Below are positions 17,649 to 25,681 of a stretch of 42,875 nucleotides of DNA, one piece after another. Location of the stretch: positions 1 to 42,875 of the IMG/VR virus record IMGVR_UViG_3300048848_000017, one strand, 5' to 3'. Every line of letters starts with the position of its first letter. Position 1 is the stretch's first letter. Made by a program: the position numbers and the translations under genes. The stretch comes from a virus (taxonomy: Duplodnaviria; Caudoviricetes). The notes beneath the pieces are model-generated. The model was not told the origin of the DNA. It saw only the letters and a list, made by a program, of their open reading frames with translations, and ran no database searches.

Positions 17649-20237
17649 TCAGGCGGCGATGTCCTGCACCTTGAAGTTGTCGTAACGGCAGGCGATATTC
17701 GAGAACGACGACCGGATGCCGGCGCGAGTTCCCGTGGTGACCGTCGAGTCACTGACCGCGCCACCGGAGATTGCGGTTCCGTTCATGTACGGCACCAGTG
17801 CCGAGCCCTGCACCGACAGGCCCAACGTTTGACCCGCGCCCGGTGTGAAGATCCCAGCCGTCGAAGACCACAGGGCGGTGGTGGTGCCACCGGCTCGGCG
17901 CTCCAGGTACAGCTTCGAGTCCACAGCTGCGTACCGCAGGCTGTAGTAGCTGGCGTCGGACGTGAACCGCGCCGTCACACCGCCCTCGATCGCCGCCACG
18001 ACAGTCTCGACATACATGTCCGTGACACCCACATCGACCGAGGCGAACCGGGTGGTCGACAGGGCGGATGCGCCGACCTGGTTGGACAGGATCTGCAACT
18101 GCCCGGTGACTGACCATGCGAGTGCTGATCCGCCGTCTGCAATATCGGTGGTGCCGAGGCTGCCGGCTGCGGTGTCGGCGCGGTCGAAGCTGTCCGAGGT
18201 GAGCATGACCGGGGTCGGTGGCGCACCAGCTGCGGGAGTGGCGACGGTGATCGTGTCTGACCACCAGCCCGGCCCGGTCGCGTTGATGCCACGGTGGCGG
18301 ACCTTGTAGCTCGTCGACTCAGCGAGACCGCTGATGGTCGGTGAGGTCGACGCCCCGGTGTAGCCGACAATCCACGCGCCTTCACCGATCCGGTACTGCA
18401 CCTCGTGCGAGGTTGCACCGGTCGCCGCGCCCAGGGTGAGCGGGATGGTCGACGAGGTGGGCGTGCCCGCCGTCAGCGCGGCGGGTTTGGCCGGCGTCGG
18501 TGTCGCCGGATCGGCAGGGATCGCGAACGCCGACGTGGGGATCGAGGTGTCCACGGCGGTCAGTGGTGGCACGCCCATCGCGGTCAGGTCCACGATCGTG
18601 TTCTGACCGATGTGCACCGTCGCCGCGCCCACGGTCGAGAACGTCACGTCGAGGCGCACGTCGATCGCATCAGCAGGGATGGTGTCTTCGATCCAGATCA
18701 CCCCGGAGGTGGGGCGGCGGACCTGGTTGAGCGGGGTCAGCGTCTTGAGCGCGGTCCCGCCTGCGCCTCGGAAGATCAGCGCGATAGTCACGTAGGCGTC
18801 GTTGGCGCCGAGGTTCGGGAACTCGGTCTTGTACCGCAGCCCGAACGCGAGACGATCACCAGCGACCGGGGTGATTCCCGAGGTTCCGGCGAACGTCGAG
18901 AACGTCTTGATCATGTTGGCGTTGCCGCCGGAGTCGTTGACCTTGGTCAGGCGCAGCCACTTCCCGGCCTCCAGTCCGTCGCCGCCCACCGGGTCGATGA
19001 TCGCGGGGGTCAGGTTCGCCAGGGAGCTGCCCGAACTCCACCCCGGCGGGTACGCACCCGAGGGGCCGGAGCCGGTGCCATTGAGGAACAGCGGCGACGA
19101 CGCCAGGTTGATCAGGCTGTAGCGGTCCTTCTCCAGCGGCACGGACATCGTGGGGAACAGCGCGAGCAGGGAGTCTTTGACGAAGTCGGCGACCGCCTTG
19201 GCTCCGGCGTATCCCCAGTGCACGCCGTCGCCGGAGTAGCTGTCTTTGAAATTGCCGGTGTCGGGGTCGGTGACCTGGAGGTAGATGTCGACCAGCGGCA
19301 GGCGGTACTTGGCTGCCATCGCCCTGACGAAGACGTTCCACGCCAGGGTGAGTTGGTAGACCTGCGGCCCGGTGTTGGTGGCGGCGGCCGACGTGCGGGC
19401 GAAGTCGCGAGGCGGGATGGTCGCGAGGATCGGTTCGATCCCGGCGGCGAGCAGCGGCAGGATGATTCCCGTCTCGTATACCGATCGGGCGTCGTTGAAG
19501 TGGCTGTAGCCCTTGGTGGTGCTGTTCGACCCGGCCAGGACGAAGCAGCGCCCCGGCTTGCGGGCGATGACCTCAGAGTTCACGCGGGCGGCGATCTGCT
19601 GCACCGTGTCAGATGCAACACCAGCGTTGGCGGCAAAGATCATCCGGCCGGCAGAGGCCCAACACGCCAGGTGCGGGAAGCTGTTGCCGTACGACCGTGA
19701 CGCTTCGGTGGTGCCGATCTGGGTGTTCGAGTCGCCGAGGAACACAATCGACGGAGCGCGCCGAGGTGCGAGCGGCTGGGTCTTGGTCGCGACCGCCGTG
19801 TTCAGCTGGCCCTCGTCGACAGTCGCTGCCACCTCCACATCACCGGTGACCGGATCCACCGGAGTGCCGTTCACAGACCGCACATAAGTCTCGGCGAGGA
19901 CCGCATAGAGCGCTTCGAGTGCGGAAGGGTCGTCGGGTACGCCGGCGAACGATTGCAACAGGGTGAGATAGCGGCCGCCGCCGGAGGGGTTGACGAAGCG
20001 TCCGTTTTCCCATTCGGTGATGGTGCCGCCGTTGATGCGGACGCGGCTTTCGAATAGTCCTTCGGCGAGGTCGATGGTGAAGCCTTCGCCGTTGTTGGTG
20101 AATTTGGCTGCGCTGATGCCGGAGGTGACGATGGTTTGGCCGTTGTCGTCGCGCATGGTGATGGCCCGAAACTCGACCTTCCCACTCGCGAATTGCCCTG
20201 ATTTTGGATGACGCGGTACATCATGGACGACAGGCAT
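17649..20237 (-). CDS. Tail/receptor-binding protein with SGNH(GDSL) esterase and FN3 domains
   Basis: IVFLGDSNT, LAGSN and DGVH SGNH blocks; FN3-like TISGLAESTSYKVR; last gene of the late operon. Confidence 0.8.
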   Translation of the reverse strand: MPVVHDVPRHPKSGQFASGKVEFRAITMRDDNGQTIVTSGISAAKFTNNGEGFTIDLAEGLFESRVRINGGTITEWENGRFVNPSGGGRYLTLLQSFAGVPDDPSALEALYAVLAETYVRSVNGTPVDPVTGDVEVAATVDEGQLNTAVATKTQPLAPRRAPSIVFLGDSNTQIGTTEASRSYGNSFPHLACWASAGRMIFAANAGVASDTVQQIAARVNSEVIARKPGRCFVLAGSNSTTKGYSHFNDARSVYETGIILPLLAAGIEPILATIPPRDFARTSAAATNTGPQVYQLTLAWNVFVRAMAAKYRLPLVDIYLQVTDPDTGNFKDSYSGDGVHWGYAGAKAVADFVKDSLLALFPTMSVPLEKDRYSLINLASSPLFLNGTGSGPSGAYPPGWSSGSSLANLTPAIIDPVGGDGLEAGKWLRLTKVNDSGGNANMIKTFSTFAGTSGITPVAGDRLAFGLRYKTEFPNLGANDAYVTIALIFRGAGGTALKTLTPLNQVRRPTSGVIWIEDTIPADAIDVRLDVTFSTVGAATVHIGQNTIVDLTAMGVPPLTAVDTSIPTSAFAIPADPATPTPAKPAALTAGTPTSSTIPLTLGAATGATSHEVQYRIGEGAWIVGYTGASTSPTISGLAESTSYKVRHRGINATGPGWWSDTITVATPAAGAPPTPVMLTSDSFDRADTAAGSLGTTDIADGGSALAWSVTGQLQILSNQVGASALSTTRFASVDVGVTDMYVETVVAAIEGGVTARFTSDASYYSLRYAAVDSKLYLERRAGGTTTALWSSTAGIFTPGAGQTLGLSVQGSALVPYMNGTAISGGAVSDSTVTTGTRAGIRSSFSNIACRYDNFKVQDIAA

Positions 20238-20833
20238 CAAGACTCCTTGGTTGGTTGTGCGCGCATAAGGCGCTCGTACTGGCTGTCAGCTTCGGCAAGC
20301 CAGTCGATGAACCTGCCGGTTTTTGCGTAGTGAGAACGCATCCCCATGGCGCGATTGCAAGCCAAGCAACGGCGCCCGCCGTCCCGATCGCCTCGCAGGT
20401 TCGGTGCTTCGAGCTTGTGCCCCCGTGGGCAGTGCGTTCGGTTTGCGAGGTGATGGGTGCCGTGTCGAAGCTTGTCGAGATTGTTCTCTGATTTCGTGCC
20501 CCAGCACAGGTTGTCGGCGCTTGAGTTGAGTTGGTTCCCGTCGAGGTGGCGCACCTCTTGTCCTGGCTCTGGTTCGCCATGAAATGCCCGCGCAACGAGG
20601 CGGTGGATGGTGAAGCACCTAGGCTTCATTCCGCCCTTCAGCTTGATGGTGGGGTAACCACTCCTGGGGTTAATCCCGACTTTGAGAACCTTAGCTGCCA
20701 CTGGCATAGGCCAGCCGTTCCGTCTGATCACGGTCCGCGTGACAGACCGCACGTGGCCCAGGTTTGAGACTTCGTAAGAATCTTCGTAGCCGGGTACTGC
20801 ACGCCATTCTTCAGTGCGTTGGGTAGCATCCAT
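20237..20833 (-). CDS. NUMOD4-HNH homing endonuclease
   Basis: EEWRAVPGYEDSYEVSNLGHVRS (NUMOD4); HRLVARAF...VRHLDGNQLNSSADNLCW (HNH); THCPRGH; AAGGAGG RBS. Confidence 0.92.
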   Translation of the reverse strand: MDATQRTEEWRAVPGYEDSYEVSNLGHVRSVTRTVIRRNGWPMPVAAKVLKVGINPRSGYPTIKLKGGMKPRCFTIHRLVARAFHGEPEPGQEVRHLDGNQLNSSADNLCWGTKSENNLDKLRHGTHHLANRTHCPRGHKLEAPNLRGDRDGGRRCLACNRAMGMRSHYAKTGRFIDWLAEADSQYERLMRAQPTKES

Positions 20834-20913
20834 TGCTAGCCCCTCCTTGGTTGAGTCAAGTGGGTGGGTCAGTGGCCGCGTGGTGTTTCCAGCACCTGCG
20901 GCCACGTCCAATT

Positions 20914-20991
20914 CTACAGTAAGACAGGCGTTTTCGGGGTCTGCCATTGGCCGGTTTTGGGGTGGCGGGGTATGTCGTGGACAGCAGGCAT
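20914..20991 (-). pseudogene. Truncated duplicate of the tail-gene 5' end (MPAVHDIPRHPKTGQW...*)
   Basis: 12 of the first 15 aa are identical to the start of 17649-20237. Confidence 0.85.
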
Positions 20992-21341
20992 CAGGGCTCC
21001 TCGGGTTCGGGCGCAGGGGGTGGGTCGGTGATCGTGTAGCCGAAGCGGCCGAACACGTCGGCATGACTGGAGATGTCGGAGAACTGGAACAGCGCCGCCA
21101 AGCCTTCGCCCTCGTACGCTCCGGTTGCGTCCACCGCGAACACTTCAGCGCCGTGCGCGACCCGGACTTCCCCGTGCGCCTCCATCCACTGCGGGAGCTG
21201 CGGAATGTCGACGTCCGCCAACGGGCTCAAGTCACAAACGATGACGTACTCAACACCACCCAGCGGTGGGGCGAGTTGGTAGTGGGTGGCGACACCAGCC
21301 CACGACGCGGTGCCGGTGGGCAAGGGAGTTGCTGTTGGCAT
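20991..21341 (-). CDS. Conserved tail-region hypothetical protein
   Basis: TAATG coupling to the minor tail gene; ...GYTI C-terminus. Confidence 0.7.
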   Translation of the reverse strand: MPTATPLPTGTASWAGVATHYQLAPPLGGVEYVIVCDLSPLADVDIPQLPQWMEAHGEVRVAHGAEVFAVDATGAYEGEGLAALFQFSDISSHADVFGRFGYTITDPPPAPEPEEP

Positions 21342-22279
21342 TACGAGGTCCATTCGATGAGTGCGATGAGTGCGTTGCCGCCTTTGCCGCCGTCGCGGGT
21401 GACACCGAGTGCGCGCCCGCCGTGGCCGCCTGCGCCGCCGGGGAATCCGCCGTCGCCACCGTCAGTCGATCCGCCGACTGTCGTGGTCGTGGAGACGGAT
21501 TGGCCGCCAGCACCGCCGCCACCGCCAGCCAGGCCGGTGCCTGTTGTGGCCGCGTTGGCGCCAACCTGCCCAGGCGAGGCCGAATAGTCACCGCCCGCAG
21601 CGAGCGGCGTAGAGCCACCGTCCTGACCGATCGAAATGTTCGTAGAGCCGCCGGAGCCGGGCGCGGAGTTGTTGAGGTCTCCGTACCCTTCGTGGCTCAC
21701 CTTGGAGCCGGTGCCGTCCGTGGGTGAGGACACAATGGTGCCGAACGATGCGACCGTGGGGGTTGTTGTGCCACTGCCCTTCGCCCGACCCGCCGGGACA
21801 ACGCCGTTTACCGATGCCGGGACGGACGTGCCGGGGAGTTCGAAGTAGATGTAGCCGCCACCGAGGGAGCGGGGCGCCGTGCTGCCGGTGAGTTGCGCGT
21901 TCAGGCCTGCCCCGCCACCGCCCATGACGACGATGCCCAGCTTGACGAGGTTGCCTGGTTTTACGTAGGTGAAGTTGCTGGTGTAGACGGTGCGGGTGCC
22001 GCCGGTGAGTAGCGCTGTGACGGTGTTGTTGGCTGCGGCTGCGGCTGCGTCTGCTGCGTTGGCGGTTTCTTCGACGTCGTCGACCCGGCCGCGGAGTGCG
22101 TTGAAGAATCCTGCGATGAGTCCGCCGTCAGAGCTACCGCCGGAGTAGGTGCCGTTGAACATGTCGAGGAGGTCACCGAGGATGGGGATGTCGCCGAAGA
22201 AGTGCTCCCACAACAGTTCCAGAAGGTTGACGTCGCCTGTGGGTTTCGGGTTTCTGCCTGCCGGTATGCGTGGTGCCAT
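21341..22279 (-). CDS. Glycine-rich minor tail protein
   Basis: VMGGGGAG, GGFPGGAGG and GGNALIALIEW glycine-rich domain. Confidence 0.8.
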   Translation of the reverse strand: MAPRIPAGRNPKPTGDVNLLELLWEHFFGDIPILGDLLDMFNGTYSGGSSDGGLIAGFFNALRGRVDDVEETANAADAAAAAANNTVTALLTGGTRTVYTSNFTYVKPGNLVKLGIVVMGGGGAGLNAQLTGSTAPRSLGGGYIYFELPGTSVPASVNGVVPAGRAKGSGTTTPTVASFGTIVSSPTDGTGSKVSHEGYGDLNNSAPGSGGSTNISIGQDGGSTPLAAGGDYSASPGQVGANAATTGTGLAGGGGGAGGQSVSTTTTVGGSTDGGDGGFPGGAGGHGGRALGVTRDGGKGGNALIALIEWTS

Positions 22280-22956
22280 CAGAGCATTCCCTTCACGTAC
22301 GCCGCAGCCTCCGACAGATGCGCCCCATACATCGGATGGTTCCGGCGGTAGTTACGGACGTCCTCGACAGCGCGGGAGTACTGCTGCCACACCGACAACG
22401 GCTCCCACCAACGGACGGCGACTTGCTGCCACCGTCGTTTCTGGAGGCGGTCTGCGATGTCGGTGAGCCAGGCTTTCGGGTCACCGAGTGCGAACGCCGC
22501 CGACTGATCAGCCAACGTTCTGAGCGGACTATCGCGGGGGCAGTATGGGATCGGATCATCCAACCGCCACACCCACCGCGTGTTCGGCGCATCCTTACCA
22601 CCCGCAATCCCGAACGAGTTGGTACCCCAGTCCGGCTGATGCGGGTCCGCGACCAGGACCGTGCCGCGTAGGTTCCGGTGACCCAGACGAGCCACGTTCC
22701 CCGCGATCGCAGCACCAGCACTGAAGCCAAGTACCACGGCAGGCCCGTTGTCCAACTCCCGCAACAACAACGACTGACCCAACCCCGTCGTCGCCACATA
22801 ACTGTTACCACCAGGACGAGGCACAGGGCCATACGAAGCGGGGTGGGGCAACTCGATCACCTGCACACCAGACAGTTGACGGGTGACACCAGTGAGAAGG
22901 TTGTTGCCGATCTGCTCACCGATCCCGCGCACAGTTACCAAGCGAGTCGCGGTCAT
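22279..22956 (-). CDS. lysB: Lysin B (cutinase-like serine esterase)
   Basis: VRGIGE, YGP, GFSAGA (GxSxG), LVADP; in the lysis cassette. Confidence 0.85.
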   Translation of the reverse strand: MTATRLVTVRGIGEQIGNNLLTGVTRQLSGVQVIELPHPASYGPVPRPGGNSYVATTGLGQSLLLRELDNGPAVVLGFSAGAAIAGNVARLGHRNLRGTVLVADPHQPDWGTNSFGIAGGKDAPNTRWVWRLDDPIPYCPRDSPLRTLADQSAAFALGDPKAWLTDIADRLQKRRWQQVAVRWWEPLSVWQQYSRAVEDVRNYRRNHPMYGAHLSEAAAYVKGML

Positions 22957-23360
22957 GCGTGCTCCGTCCCCGCCGGCTTGTCCGGCTCATCAATCCCATG
23001 CGAAGAGATCCGCTGACGGAGCCGCGCAATCCACAACAACAGAGCCACAATCCGCTCATCGAGAACGTTGATCGTCGCGTCCCGCTTATCCAACTTCTCC
23101 TGCAACACATCGATGCGGCCCTCATAGCGGGCGCACTCCGCGTCATGCTGCGCCTCGGCCTTCTCCAACTCAGCCTCAGCCTCATGCAAAGCGCGCTCCA
23201 ACTTCGCCTTGTCATCCAACTTCGCCTTCGACCGGGCGCCGATGATCGTCGCTACGAAACCCGACAACGCCAGGATCAACGCAGTGAGGATGCCGACATT
23301 CTCAGTCGTCAGGACAGGCTCAGCCGCAACCATCACATTCGGTCCAGTGAACCCAATCAT
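22953..23360 (-). CDS. Lysis-cassette membrane protein (one TM + coiled coil)
   Basis: Hydrophobic helix followed by a charged coiled coil. Confidence 0.7.
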   Translation of the reverse strand: MIGFTGPNVMVAAEPVLTTENVGILTALILALSGFVATIIGARSKAKLDDKAKLERALHEAEAELEKAEAQHDAECARYEGRIDVLQEKLDKRDATINVLDERIVALLLWIARLRQRISSHGIDEPDKPAGTEHA

Positions 23361-23746
23361 CGATAGCCCCGTTCCGCGCAGGAGAACGCTAGGGCGGCGT
23401 GCCCGAACGCTGTCCACACCGCGATAGTCCCCGCCAGAACGGGTGTAGGTGGCTCAGAGAACCACGCTCCCAATAGAATCGCTGCACCGTAGAAGCCCCA
23501 CGTGAAAACTGATACCGCGTGAGCGACGACGAAACCCTTCTTGCGCCAGGACACGAACATCAGCCACACACCCGACAGCACAAACAGGACCGTCCACCAC
23601 GGGCCGACATTCTCGACCGTGACGACAAGGCTGATCTGTTCCGGTGGGAGTGGTCGGCGCACCAACTGGGACGGACCCAGATACAGTGCGCCGACGCACA
23701 CGTTCATTGCCCCGGCGGCACCGGCTACCAGCCGGGTACCGAGCAT
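23357..23746 (-). CDS. Lysis-cassette multi-TM membrane protein
   Basis: About four hydrophobic segments. Confidence 0.7.
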   Translation of the reverse strand: MLGTRLVAGAAGAMNVCVGALYLGPSQLVRRPLPPEQISLVVTVENVGPWWTVLFVLSGVWLMFVSWRKKGFVVAHAVSVFTWGFYGAAILLGAWFSEPPTPVLAGTIAVWTAFGHAALAFSCAERGYR

Positions 23747-24015
23747 CAGCGGGCAGGTGTGTTCGGATCACCGTCGACAATGTCAGCGACGTTGGTGATG
23801 AGCGTTTCGTTCTTCGCGATCCACACCCCGATTGCGGTGGCGCCGGCGATGGCGGTGTTGATCCACGTCAACTGCTCCGCGGGGATGACGTCACCGAACG
23901 CGGAGACGAGTGACACGACGAGCGCGACGACAGCACCGAGGAATGCGACGACGAACTTGGAGTACTGGCTGATGCGCTGCGCCACGGTGGGCTGAGTTCG
24001 TACGGTCATGGTCAA
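23746..24015 (-). CDS. Holin
   Basis: Two TM helices, KFVVAFLG...TAIGVW; follows lysin A. Confidence 0.75.
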   Translation of the reverse strand: MTMTVRTQPTVAQRISQYSKFVVAFLGAVVALVVSLVSAFGDVIPAEQLTWINTAIAGATAIGVWIAKNETLITNVADIVDGDPNTPAR

Positions 24016-25505
24016 TCCTTCTTTCGTGTGATGCGAACCGCGCCTGAGGGATTCCAGGCGAGGGAGTCGTGTTCGAAGTCCTGCATTTTCCCGCCATCGA
24101 AGTCATACTCATTCGAGGTAGGCCAACCCAGGTCGCGGGCTTCAGCGCCGCGCTGGTAGTACGAATCGCCGATGGCGCCAGTGACGTGATGGCCGGGGTC
24201 ATCGCCCAGTTTGCGGAAGACAACCCCACGCTCGAACGCCTGAATATCACCGACGTCCGCGATGTACGTGTGGTTCTTCACCGGGTAGCCCAGAGGGCCG
24301 TTCTCCCAGTTCAGTCCGGCCCAGTACTGGAAGATCCGCAGCGGCACAGCACGCGCACCGAACTTGGGATGCCAGTAGATGTAGCCGCGCTCGAACTGCG
24401 CGTATCGGCCTTTGCCGTCGACACCGCAAGTGCGTTCCTCACCGAGCTTCCCAACACGGGCGCCGAGCCAGTTCGTGGACTTCTCGATGATTCGTTGCAT
24501 CTCATCGATCTGATTCACCACAGGCGGGGGTGGAGGCTTCGCGCCACCATCGATCTGGTTCTGGATGTCGCGGCGGAAGGCGTTCATGTCGATGCCGCCT
24601 GGATCCCACTTGCCCTGCGACGGACCAGCCCATTCCTTGTGGCCGATGACCCGGTCGGCGCGGACGCCCAGGCGCCGGCAGATCGCCGCGCAGACCTTCA
24701 CGTAGGCCCAGTACTGCGCCGCGGACCAACCCTCGGTGCCGTTGTTGTCAGCCTCAATACCGATGGTCACCTGGTTGGCGCCGTTGTCCCGGATACCGGG
24801 CCACCGACCTGAGCCTGCATGCCATGCGATACCCGCGGCAACGACAGACGCGACACCGTTTCGAGCAAGGTAGATCTGCGACACCGGACCCGGCAGATCG
24901 GGGCGCCCGTTCGCGATGGACCCGGCACCGGAGTTGCCGGATGCGCCGGTGTGGTGAGCAACGATGCCCCAGATGTTCCCGAAGTCGCCGTGCCCATGAT
25001 TCTTCCAGTCGCCATACTCGACAGTCGCAACGCCCTCAGCGCGCAACACATCAGCCAGCCAAACGGGATCACCCATATTGGTCTCCTGTGATTGAGTGCC
25101 AGCGGCTTTCAGCCAACCGGCAGGATCGATACGTGCGCCGTCGCCATGTCCGCGAGGCCACACAGTGATGTGAAGATGAGGACCAGTCGAGCCACCGTTA
25201 GACCCGACATAGCCGATGTGCTGTCCAGCAGCGACCTTGCTGCCGACCTTCAGCCCCGCCGCGAATGCGTCCCACATGTGCCCGTACTCGACACACCCAC
25301 CGCCCTGCGCATCGTCGGAGTCGATGACGATCCACTGGCCGTAACCGTCCGCCGCGCCGATGTACTGAACCGTTCCCGCCTGGCACGCATAGAACTTCGT
25401 GCCATCCTTCGCAGCAAAGTCCAGCCCGTAATGGAAGCCGCCCGCCCGATTGCCAAACCCAGACGAGATCGAATACGTCCCAGCCTTCAGCGGGTAGACC
25501 CTCAC
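24012..25505 (-). CDS. lysA: Lysin A (M23 peptidase + amidase_2 + LGFP-like repeats)
   Basis: HYGLDF/GPHLH (M23); HHT, AWHAG, IGIEA, GHKEW..KWDPG (amidase); PLGYP/LGWP repeats. Confidence 0.92.
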   Translation of the reverse strand: MRVYPLKAGTYSISSGFGNRAGGFHYGLDFAAKDGTKFYACQAGTVQYIGAADGYGQWIVIDSDDAQGGGCVEYGHMWDAFAAGLKVGSKVAAGQHIGYVGSNGGSTGPHLHITVWPRGHGDGARIDPAGWLKAAGTQSQETNMGDPVWLADVLRAEGVATVEYGDWKNHGHGDFGNIWGIVAHHTGASGNSGAGSIANGRPDLPGPVSQIYLARNGVASVVAAGIAWHAGSGRWPGIRDNGANQVTIGIEADNNGTEGWSAAQYWAYVKVCAAICRRLGVRADRVIGHKEWAGPSQGKWDPGGIDMNAFRRDIQNQIDGGAKPPPPPVVNQIDEMQRIIEKSTNWLGARVGKLGEERTCGVDGKGRYAQFERGYIYWHPKFGARAVPLRIFQYWAGLNWENGPLGYPVKNHTYIADVGDIQAFERGVVFRKLGDDPGHHVTGAIGDSYYQRGAEARDLGWPTSNEYDFDGGKMQDFEHDSLAWNPSGAVRITRKKD

Positions 25506-25681
25506 GTGCCGCTCCCTATGTCCTTGACGCCGTCCATCCACAGGCCCGACGCAATCGTTTTGATGGTCCTCAACTCCTCAGGCGACGCCGGCACAACACT
25601 GTGCCGCTCCTCATAACGCCTCGCCGCCCGACACACAAACCCGAACACCTCAAAAGGCAACTCAGACAGGAGACGACGCAT
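25502..25681 (-). CDS. Small hypothetical protein
   Basis: 59 aa; GTGA overlap with lysA. Confidence 0.5.
   Translation of the reverse strand: MRRLLSELPFEVFGFVCRAARRYEERHSVVPASPEELRTIKTIASGLWMDGVKDIGSGT

Follow-up and report, generated by a model that had tools for sequence, protein, structure and literature searches.

Two versions of a gene start flank a NUMOD4-HNH endonuclease gene in a probable actinophage: a candidate homing cassette that may spread without splicing

Layout of the locus

The window analysed here is a virus record of 42,875 nt (IMG/VR IMGVR_UViG_3300048848_000017; about 90% complete), in which a gene for a NUMOD4-HNH endonuclease lies between two versions of the start of a likely tail gene. 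Among its gene products are a terminase, a portal, a tail protein of the Gp37-like type, an amidase/M23 lysin and a tyrosine integrase. Because its nearest relative found is a Gordonia desulfuricans prophage (48% on one gene), the virus is probably a temperate actinophage. Two public sequencing runs contain the stretch: X1, from soil and possibly its source, and X2, from a biofilm and a separate study (0.09 of words); no RNA run contains it. At the locus, all on the minus strand, a 120-aa gene (20991-21353), DUF7572-like (Pfam 24.9 bits, below the cut-off of 27) and matching the minor-tail PHROG 2235, is followed by a 25-aa open reading frame (ORF; 20914-20991), 80 non-coding nt, the 198-aa nuclease gene (20237-20833) and an 862-aa gene (17649-20237) for a probable virion-associated protein.

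The 25-aa ORF and the 862-aa gene begin alike. Copy 1 (20946-20991, i.e., 15 codons plus 1 nt) starts at 20991, in an ORF that stops after 25 aa, while copy 2 (20192-20237) starts at 20237 and opens the 862-aa ORF. Over 15 codons, the copies share 12 of the 15 amino acids, with synonymous differences in 7 of these 12 codons, and 33 of 45 nt; over 46 nt, the match is 34/46 with a longest in-register identical run of 9 nt. Each ATG stands in a TGATG overlap with the preceding stop codon, and that of copy 1 is additionally preceded by a GAGGAG ribosome-binding motif (20997-21002). A chance origin of this duplication is not credible, since elsewhere in the six-frame translation of the window, segments of 15 residues have at most 6/15 identities with the copy-1 peptide. 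The counts of identical residues and of synonymously differing codons agree exactly with those in a preliminary description of the locus, made from the sequence alone, which had also seen a shift of the live copy towards A/T. This shift is equally borne out: five of the seven synonymous changes from copy 1 to copy 2 go from G/C- to A/T-ending codons, none goes in the reverse direction and two are neutral. The G+C content at third positions (GC3) of codons 2-15 is 4/14 in copy 2 versus 9/14 in copy 1, and 0.85 in the gene body, where none of 833 windows is as low as copy 2; for 20 other gene starts in the window, it ranges from 5 to 12 of 14.

Which copy is the resident start

An empty allele of the locus is present in run X2. 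In a contig of 1,864 bp, window positions 20070-20199 directly adjoin 20954-21043 (record positions 1055|1056): no letters stand between 20199 and 20954, the two sides have 8 and 5 differences, and there are no gaps. Compared with the window, exactly 754 nt are missing from this contig without loss of frame, and nt 1-38 of copy 1 run on into copy 2 at nt 39; the insert is therefore inside the coding sequence, after nt 38-46, and not in an intergenic position. The exact break lies somewhere in nt 38-46: with the break placed after nt 46 of copy 1, the cassette spans 20192-20945, and the identical 754 nt, drawn against the X2 allele, span 20200-20953. Two proteins of close relatives, 84-85% identical over the first 120 aa, tell the same story. 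P0003, from a 1,864-bp Logan contig and carrying the V37I change of the X2 empty contig, begins with the copy-1 residues A3, I7 and T13, and P0011, from another contig, has all 15 copy-1 residues and then the gene body. Because the empty contig, P0003 and P0011 all run a copy-1 start into the gene body, as the preliminary description had predicted for the empty allele, copy 1 is the resident start, left stranded upstream. The 25-aa relic ORF thus consists of 15 resident codons followed by 10 codons of the cassette.

The converse, that copy 2 is the original start and copy 1 a local duplication or a fragment borne by the element, would agree with copy 2 being the one in frame with the body today. 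It is nonetheless highly improbable given that the close relatives P0003 and P0011 begin with copy-1 residues, that the empty contig aligns to copy 1 over nt 1-38 and that the GC3 of copy 2 is the lowest of the whole gene.

Where copy 2 came from is suggested by more distant homologs: P0004 (66%) has V3, V7 and S13, all three amino acid differences of copy 2, and P0005 has V3 and V7. These residues point to a foreign ortholog as the source, and copy 2 is probably a foreign orthologous start that subsequently drifted synonymously towards A/T. The term 'recoded', used in the preliminary description for the live copy, is to be qualified in this sense, given the P0004 residues and a cluster O insertion in the lysin B parallel described below.

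Further searches for alleles of the locus returned little. A degenerate pattern search of viral contigs had 0 matches; the upstream gene, sought in viral contigs, phages and genomes, was found only in the G. desulfuricans prophage (48%), with an unrelated gene after it; and the N-terminal part of the 862-aa protein gave two weak records in annotated phages, none in viral and metagenome contigs, and one distant match in 301 genomes (L086), with no HNH gene upstream.

Two side observations concern run X2. The match of the empty contig to the upstream gene is limited to the final 52 nt of that gene, after which the contig continues as a more distant homolog; this gives another mosaic boundary (21013-21043 in the window) near the insertion. 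The HNH interior (20380-20565) is reproduced without change in a contig of 186 bp, the longer contigs of the flanking genes there being about 89-93% identical; occupied and empty alleles may coexist in this run, and the 186-bp contig itself was rejected as evidence of an occupied allele as too small and shallow.

The nuclease and its cassette

The gene between the copies encodes a NUMOD4 domain (PF07463, aa 8-65) and an HNH_3 domain (PF13392, aa 76-118), each above its curated cut-off, and is the sole such gene in the window. Residues H96, N108 and N117 are invariant in 32 sequences of its subfamily, and C135, H139, C156 and C159 form a zinc-finger-like cluster. The protein matches I-HmuI (1u3e) with an E-value of 3.5e-12, H96 and N117 aligning to His75 and Asn96, which we take to be catalytic residues of that enzyme. 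The likeness covers NUMOD4 and HNH within the N-terminal 120 aa; the C-terminal region differs, and in the window enzyme it holds the Cys/His cluster and a short helix. I-HmuI is moreover described as intron-encoded in a Bacillus phage (PMC2988022), whereas the window nuclease is free-standing. A relative, Girr gp32, causes moderate growth inhibition upon overexpression, which says nothing about specificity.

The cassette carries its own expression signals. An 11-mer in the HNH ribosome-binding site (20843-20853; with the start codon, 20831-20853) recurs just before copy 2 (20243-20253), inside the last HNH codons, where it forms the ribosome-binding motif for the replacement start, and is found nowhere else in the window. 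Copy 2 arrived with this I-HmuI-like NUMOD4-HNH cassette, which brought its own leader and ribosome-binding sites. As to transcription, a -10-like hexamer, TAGAAT (20911-20916), within which the relic ORF stops, is a putative cassette promoter lacking a full sigma-70 match; a scan for two-box promoters and terminators gave no match. Similar leaders precede other actinophage NUMOD4-HNH genes, with hexamers like TAGAAT in those of L018, L023, L024, L029 and the mycobacteriophage Ramsey. The leader also contains a hairpin (20872-20905; z -2.77, 2 of 200 shuffles being as stable) whose shape is common to L023, L024 and Ramsey and which is significant in 2/5 folded leaders; the relic and leader folded as a whole do no better than shuffles (z -0.34). 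Moreover, a 2,081-bp contig of run X2 shares only the leader with the cassette (20821-20908, i.e., hairpin and ribosome-binding site) before a different NUMOD4-like start, and the leader can thus be viewed as a module shared among cassettes. Four further loci (L129, L139, L142 and L154) show the same ribosome-binding motif and similar first residues before ORFs that are profile-negative for NUMOD4-HNH, and are possibly other mobile nuclease types using this leader.

The consequence for the tail gene is that its start now overlaps the HNH stop, not that of the original upstream gene, and that its ribosome-binding site is supplied by the cassette. The form of coupling is therefore kept and the partner changed: the preserved coupling of the preliminary description stands as regards the TGATG overlap, and fails as regards the original upstream gene, since the 25-aa relic interrupts the chain, and the tail gene is now linked to the HNH stop instead.

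An alternative is removal of the insert from the RNA as an atypical group I intron, or its bypass by the ribosome, with copy 2 being incidental. Removing 754 nt would restore the frame, and spliced introns have been described in capsid and tail genes of cluster J mycobacteriophages (PMC3706429). However, no Rfam family, and hence no catalytic core RNA, matches positions 19800-21400 at E<=1; non-coding sequence makes up no more than 80 nt of the insert; and within the duplicated nt 1-46 there is no U...G junction of the group I type in register, the only ones lying at nt 66 and 71, outside the homologous stretch, where their use would drop conserved residues. In addition, copy 2 has a ribosome-binding motif and an ATG, which an intron would not need. 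Such processing is accordingly very unlikely, and the nuclease gene, with its own start and stop, no Rfam match and an empty allele, lies outside any intron or intein and is present or absent among relatives.

A parallel in the lysin B gene of cluster F mycobacteriophages

A NUMOD4-HNH gene is found between lysin A and lysin B in the cluster F phages Ramsey, Hlubikazi, Leozinho, KingMidas and Ruby, while Firehouse51, Saal, Che8, Tweety and Velveteen have none at this place. The first 156 nt of Ramsey lysin B match 22 of 50,697 records (15 phages), and an HNH gene stands directly upstream in these, as annotated in 15, through an HNH match ending 27 nt upstream in 5, and by inference in 2 (Eish). 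The lysin B genes of HNH-less cluster F and C phages match only from nt 136-145 onward (in a spread of 60 out of 732 records). The diverged lysin B start thus occurs only behind HNH, and it does so on different gene bodies, the same type of tract being common to Ramsey, Leozinho and L055. The boundary is also visible in the codons. Between Ramsey and Firehouse51, the 5' tract (38 scored codons) has 8 identical, 14 synonymously different and 16 non-synonymously different codons, versus 67, 4 and 2, respectively, among the 73 codons that follow (p 4e-8). Leozinho has even kept a relic, of 4 codons and TGATG-coupled.

Here again, the tract resembles a foreign start that has drifted, because cluster O lysin B has the same 6-residue insertion, although differing at 19 of 31 synonymous-capable codons, and because the GC3 of the tract is lowered (0.45-0.68, versus 0.74-0.87 in seven empty alleles of that type). 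Among the individual cluster F loci, the HNH gene travels with the diverged first ~45 lysin B codons in L091 (1695-1850), L089 (850-1620), L087, L088 and L100, and Ruby has a second type of lysin B, with an A/T-rich start behind HNH.

Recurrence at other NUMOD4-HNH loci

Recurrence was assessed on NUMOD4-HNH loci of viral contigs, of which 564 were confirmed and the best 79 used. For each locus, the translated 400 nt upstream were compared with the 150 nt downstream; 320 permuted pairs gave a null maximum of 51, and 165 mechanically picked non-HNH ORFs served as controls (167 before two window ORFs overlapping the locus were dropped). Seven of the 79 loci (L039, L028, L055, L056, L050, L046 and L040) exceed the null maximum, versus 1/165 controls (p 0.0018), and 5/77 do so when the three terminase loci are collapsed (p 0.013). 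Peptide-level duplications flanking other free-standing HNH genes, which the preliminary description had proposed to look for, therefore exist.

Both ends of genes are concerned. Replacement of the 5' end is seen above the null in three terminase genes (L046, L050 and L056) and in the lysin B gene of L055, where the relic is fused in frame to HNH; L023, L047, L029 and L024 are below the null maximum and are candidates supported by geometry only. Replacement of the 3' end is seen in a DNA polymerase A gene (L028), in a helicase-like gene (L039), in L040, where the gene is on the opposite strand, and in L109, from a second scan; L018 and L041 are candidates of this type, again below the null maximum and supported by geometry only. 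Across 11 loci, a count that includes the sub-null L023, L047, L029, L024, L018 and L041, the synonymous changes from relic to live copy go from G/C to A/T in 48 cases and in the reverse direction in 16; the corresponding figures are 55 and 24 with L109 added. The 3'-end replacement in L028 shows the shift by itself (9 vs 2).

A scan by ribosome-binding motif found NUMOD4-HNH behind the motif in 18/61 loci, an unspecific yield that forms 9 groups, of which two exceed the null maximum: L109, and L108, on the same contig as L023. A scan with a single HNH sequence gave three weak loci, and the matches at L010, L027, L037, L141, L111 and L122 were discarded, being of low complexity or off frame. 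By eye, no relic is seen at the HNH gene that lies between RecE and RecT in Gordonia phage Adora.

Some of these loci have particularities of their own. In L055 (1345-1995) and L024 (1345-2019), the stranded gene start is in frame with HNH, so that the nuclease may borrow the start codon of the host gene. In L039 (2013-2126) and L109, the C-terminal relic left behind opens with an ATG that overlaps the HNH stop and from which a peptide of 36-37 aa could be translated. In L040, the duplicated C-terminus (1338-1424 and 2063-2146) belongs to a gene convergent with HNH.

A possible homing mechanism

The account that we consider fairly probable is that the nuclease nicks the uninterrupted gene near codon 15, that repair copies the cassette in, and that the start carried by the cassette avoids recutting. 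The grounds for supposing cutting, resistance and homing are the family of the enzyme and the distribution described above. In such a scheme, the target would span roughly codons 5-25 of the empty allele, and the enzyme, by its likeness to I-HmuI, would nick DNA. The upstream gene together with copy 1 on the left, and the gene body on the right, would provide the homology arms for repair. Insertion would split the recognition site, and the divergence of copy 2 would avoid rebuilding it, sparing the cassette's own allele, a resistance for which the codon shifts are indirect evidence. Copy 2 and the new ribosome-binding site would keep the frame of the tail gene whole, leaving the original start stranded upstream, and the element could in this way spread without splicing, the replacement start doing the job that splicing does for an intron. 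The replacement start itself would have been taken from the orthologous gene of another phage, with later drift to A/T-ending codons. Once the relic has decayed, the locus would resemble an ordinary intergenic nuclease beside a resistant allele, as in the intronless homing of T4.

Several points weigh against this account. No second occupied allele of the locus was found in viral and metagenome contigs, annotated phages or 301 genomes. The identity of the empty allele with copy 1 is only bounded, at no fewer than 5 of 10 discriminating sites in nt 1-38, because ten sites separate the copies there and at most 5 differences fall in this stretch. The 22 lysin B records go back to no more than two or three independent lineages, and 72 of the 79 related HNH loci have no relic above the null. 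The synonymous bias falls to 40 versus 20 in the six above-null loci alone (p 0.013, codons not being independent), and is absent from the terminase loci L050 and L056 and from L109 (8 vs 7). Lastly, the free-standing enzymes of T4 are reported to cut hundreds to thousands of bp from their own gene (PMC2988022), so that the target need not be at the junction seen in the window.

A related proposal accepts a homing cassette and attributes the divergence of copy 2 to something other than resistance, namely stability of the cassette, which recombination between near-identical repeats would delete, or A/T-rich 5' codons that suit initiation after the HNH stop. If the copies recombined, exactly 754 nt would indeed be excised in frame, and the longest identical run is only 9 nt; in addition, other gene starts in the window also have a lowered GC3 (5-12 of 14). 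Against this, cluster F phages retain diverged starts even when the relic has disappeared or shrunk to 4 codons, and the A/T shift is present in the 3'-end replacement of L028, to which an effect on initiation does not apply. We regard this proposal, which is compatible with homing, as rather unlikely.

It is also unlikely that the locus is a one-off mosaic scar, in which an HNH gene already standing before a foreign ortholog entered through homologous recombination within the gene body and an illegitimate event on the left side, leaving the duplication as a by-product, with the gene untargeted. The amino acid differences of copy 2 do match the distant natural homolog P0004, the duplicated stretch ends in a 4-nt microhomology, and Pope et al. 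propose a donor in a distantly related context for an HNH insertion that gave a lysin A gene a new end (PMC3706429). This scenario nevertheless leaves unexplained the enrichment at HNH genes over control ORFs, as well as the sharp tract boundary on different lysin B bodies and the absence of the tract from HNH-less phages. Such an event may well have been the first arrival of the cassette, which is compatible with later homing.

More generally, and tentatively, since we would put this at somewhat less than an even chance, HNH cassettes of phages could form a widespread third homing class besides introns and inteins, cutting the ends of essential genes and rescuing them with a cut-proof 5' or 3' replacement. 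If so, the relic seen at 6-9% of NUMOD4-HNH loci would have disappeared from many more, and many 'intergenic' phage HNH genes would be older members of the class. Furthermore, a rescued start placed on the stop of the nuclease would tie translation of an essential gene to an intact nuclease frame, and this tie would slow the decay that normally ends the homing cycle.

Relation to known systems

A first likeness is to the WHO elements of yeast, in which, at Torulaspora FBA1, a resistant version carried by the element is reported to substitute for the gene's 3' half (bioRxiv 10.64898/2026.08.13.744650). Both systems combine, without splicing, an endonuclease gene with a divergent segment of the target gene, which takes the place of the resident segment and leaves the latter behind as a relic. 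WHO elements are nuclear, encode HO-like LAGLIDADG enzymes with a zinc finger, replace the 3' half and occur in arrays, and their cleavage and resistance are demonstrated; the window cassette has an HNH enzyme of predicted activity and concerns the 5' end of a phage gene together with a ribosome-binding site. In the available portions of the WHO papers, phages appear only in a general mention of bacteriophages (bioRxiv 10.64898/2026.08.13.744650) and are absent from PMC7282813.

A second likeness is to the mORFs of fungal mitochondria, mobile endonuclease ORFs that are inserted in a gene and form hybrids with it, carrying foreign C-termini (of atp6, atp9, cox2 and nad3 in Glomus and, as cited there, of atp6 in Allomyces), for which PMC3630166 describes a displaced native end closer to empty relatives than the inserted copy. 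These are C-terminal duplications with LAGLIDADG or GIY-YIG enzymes in organelles, the window being their mirror image at the 5' end, and the term 'N-terminal' is absent from that paper. Their direct counterparts among phage loci are the 3'-type L028, L039 and L109. The architecture common to WHO elements and mORFs, in which the diverged copy is the live end and the displaced end resembles empty alleles, is present in the window and in cluster F lysin B, and replacement of a 3' end, which does not apply to the window, is found in L028, L039, L109 and L040. The window cassette thus works like a WHO element or an mORF and belongs to neither family.

Among phages, the Seg and Mob enzymes of T4 are likewise free-standing and unspliced, often overlap their neighbours and have hairpin-containing leaders, and the HNH enzymes MobA and MobE nick and are over-inherited; they differ in being intergenic with distant cut sites, and the available text of this source describes no duplicated gene end or stranded relic (PMC2988022). 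The SPO1-like free-standing HNH genes of mycobacteriophages (Pham 6944) have the same hosts and likely encode the same kind of enzyme. Beside them, lysin A 5' ends without close homologues were reported, as well as one insertion that gave a new 3' end; this was read as repair errors or distant donors adding to mosaicism, with no replacement start or relic in the portion available (PMC3706429). The ShiLan-type hidden HNH insertions in actinophage methylases are also unspliced and inside a gene, and are described as tolerated, the host frame staying open through the insert (PMC11855218), whereas in the window the host frame stops at codon 26 and restarts. No explicit description of a 5'-end replacement in phages was found in the open literature, subscription journals and supplements being outside the scope of the search, and the layout was not found in the available portions of PMC2248197, PMC10448857, PMC12724721 and PMC13056207.

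The locus illustrates a way for a selfish nuclease to enter an essential gene of a phage without RNA or protein splicing. The strategy of replacing a gene end, familiar from the WHO elements of yeast and from the mitochondria of fungi, is thereby extended to phages and to 5' ends. This case adds a direct empty allele, a controlled estimate of frequency, both orientations and a cultured system, the cluster F phages of M. smegmatis, with matched occupied and empty alleles. It also offers a specific explanation of how lysin, terminase and tail genes in phage mosaics come to have exchanged ends, predicts that the cut site of a free-standing HNH enzyme coincides with the boundary of the diverged tract, and appears as a natural parallel to engineered cleave-and-rescue gene drives.

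The interrupted gene and its surroundings

The 862-aa ORF contains an SGNH/GDSL hydrolase domain (aa 164-351; SGNH/GDSL lipase families matched) and matches a tail PHROG weakly (E 1.7e-4). Because it lies behind two genes that match minor-tail PHROGs, its product is likely a tail protein. Its N-terminal module of about 115 aa (19890-20237), which has no Pfam or PHROG match, is found joined to unrelated C-termini in proteins of 126, 142, 182, 200, 400, 629 and 862 aa, and is likely a virion anchor for swappable cargo domains. The region 22279-25541 of the window contains lysis genes (an M23/amidase/LGFP lysin, small membrane-type ORFs and an alpha/beta hydrolase) between the main tail genes and the distal minor-tail genes.

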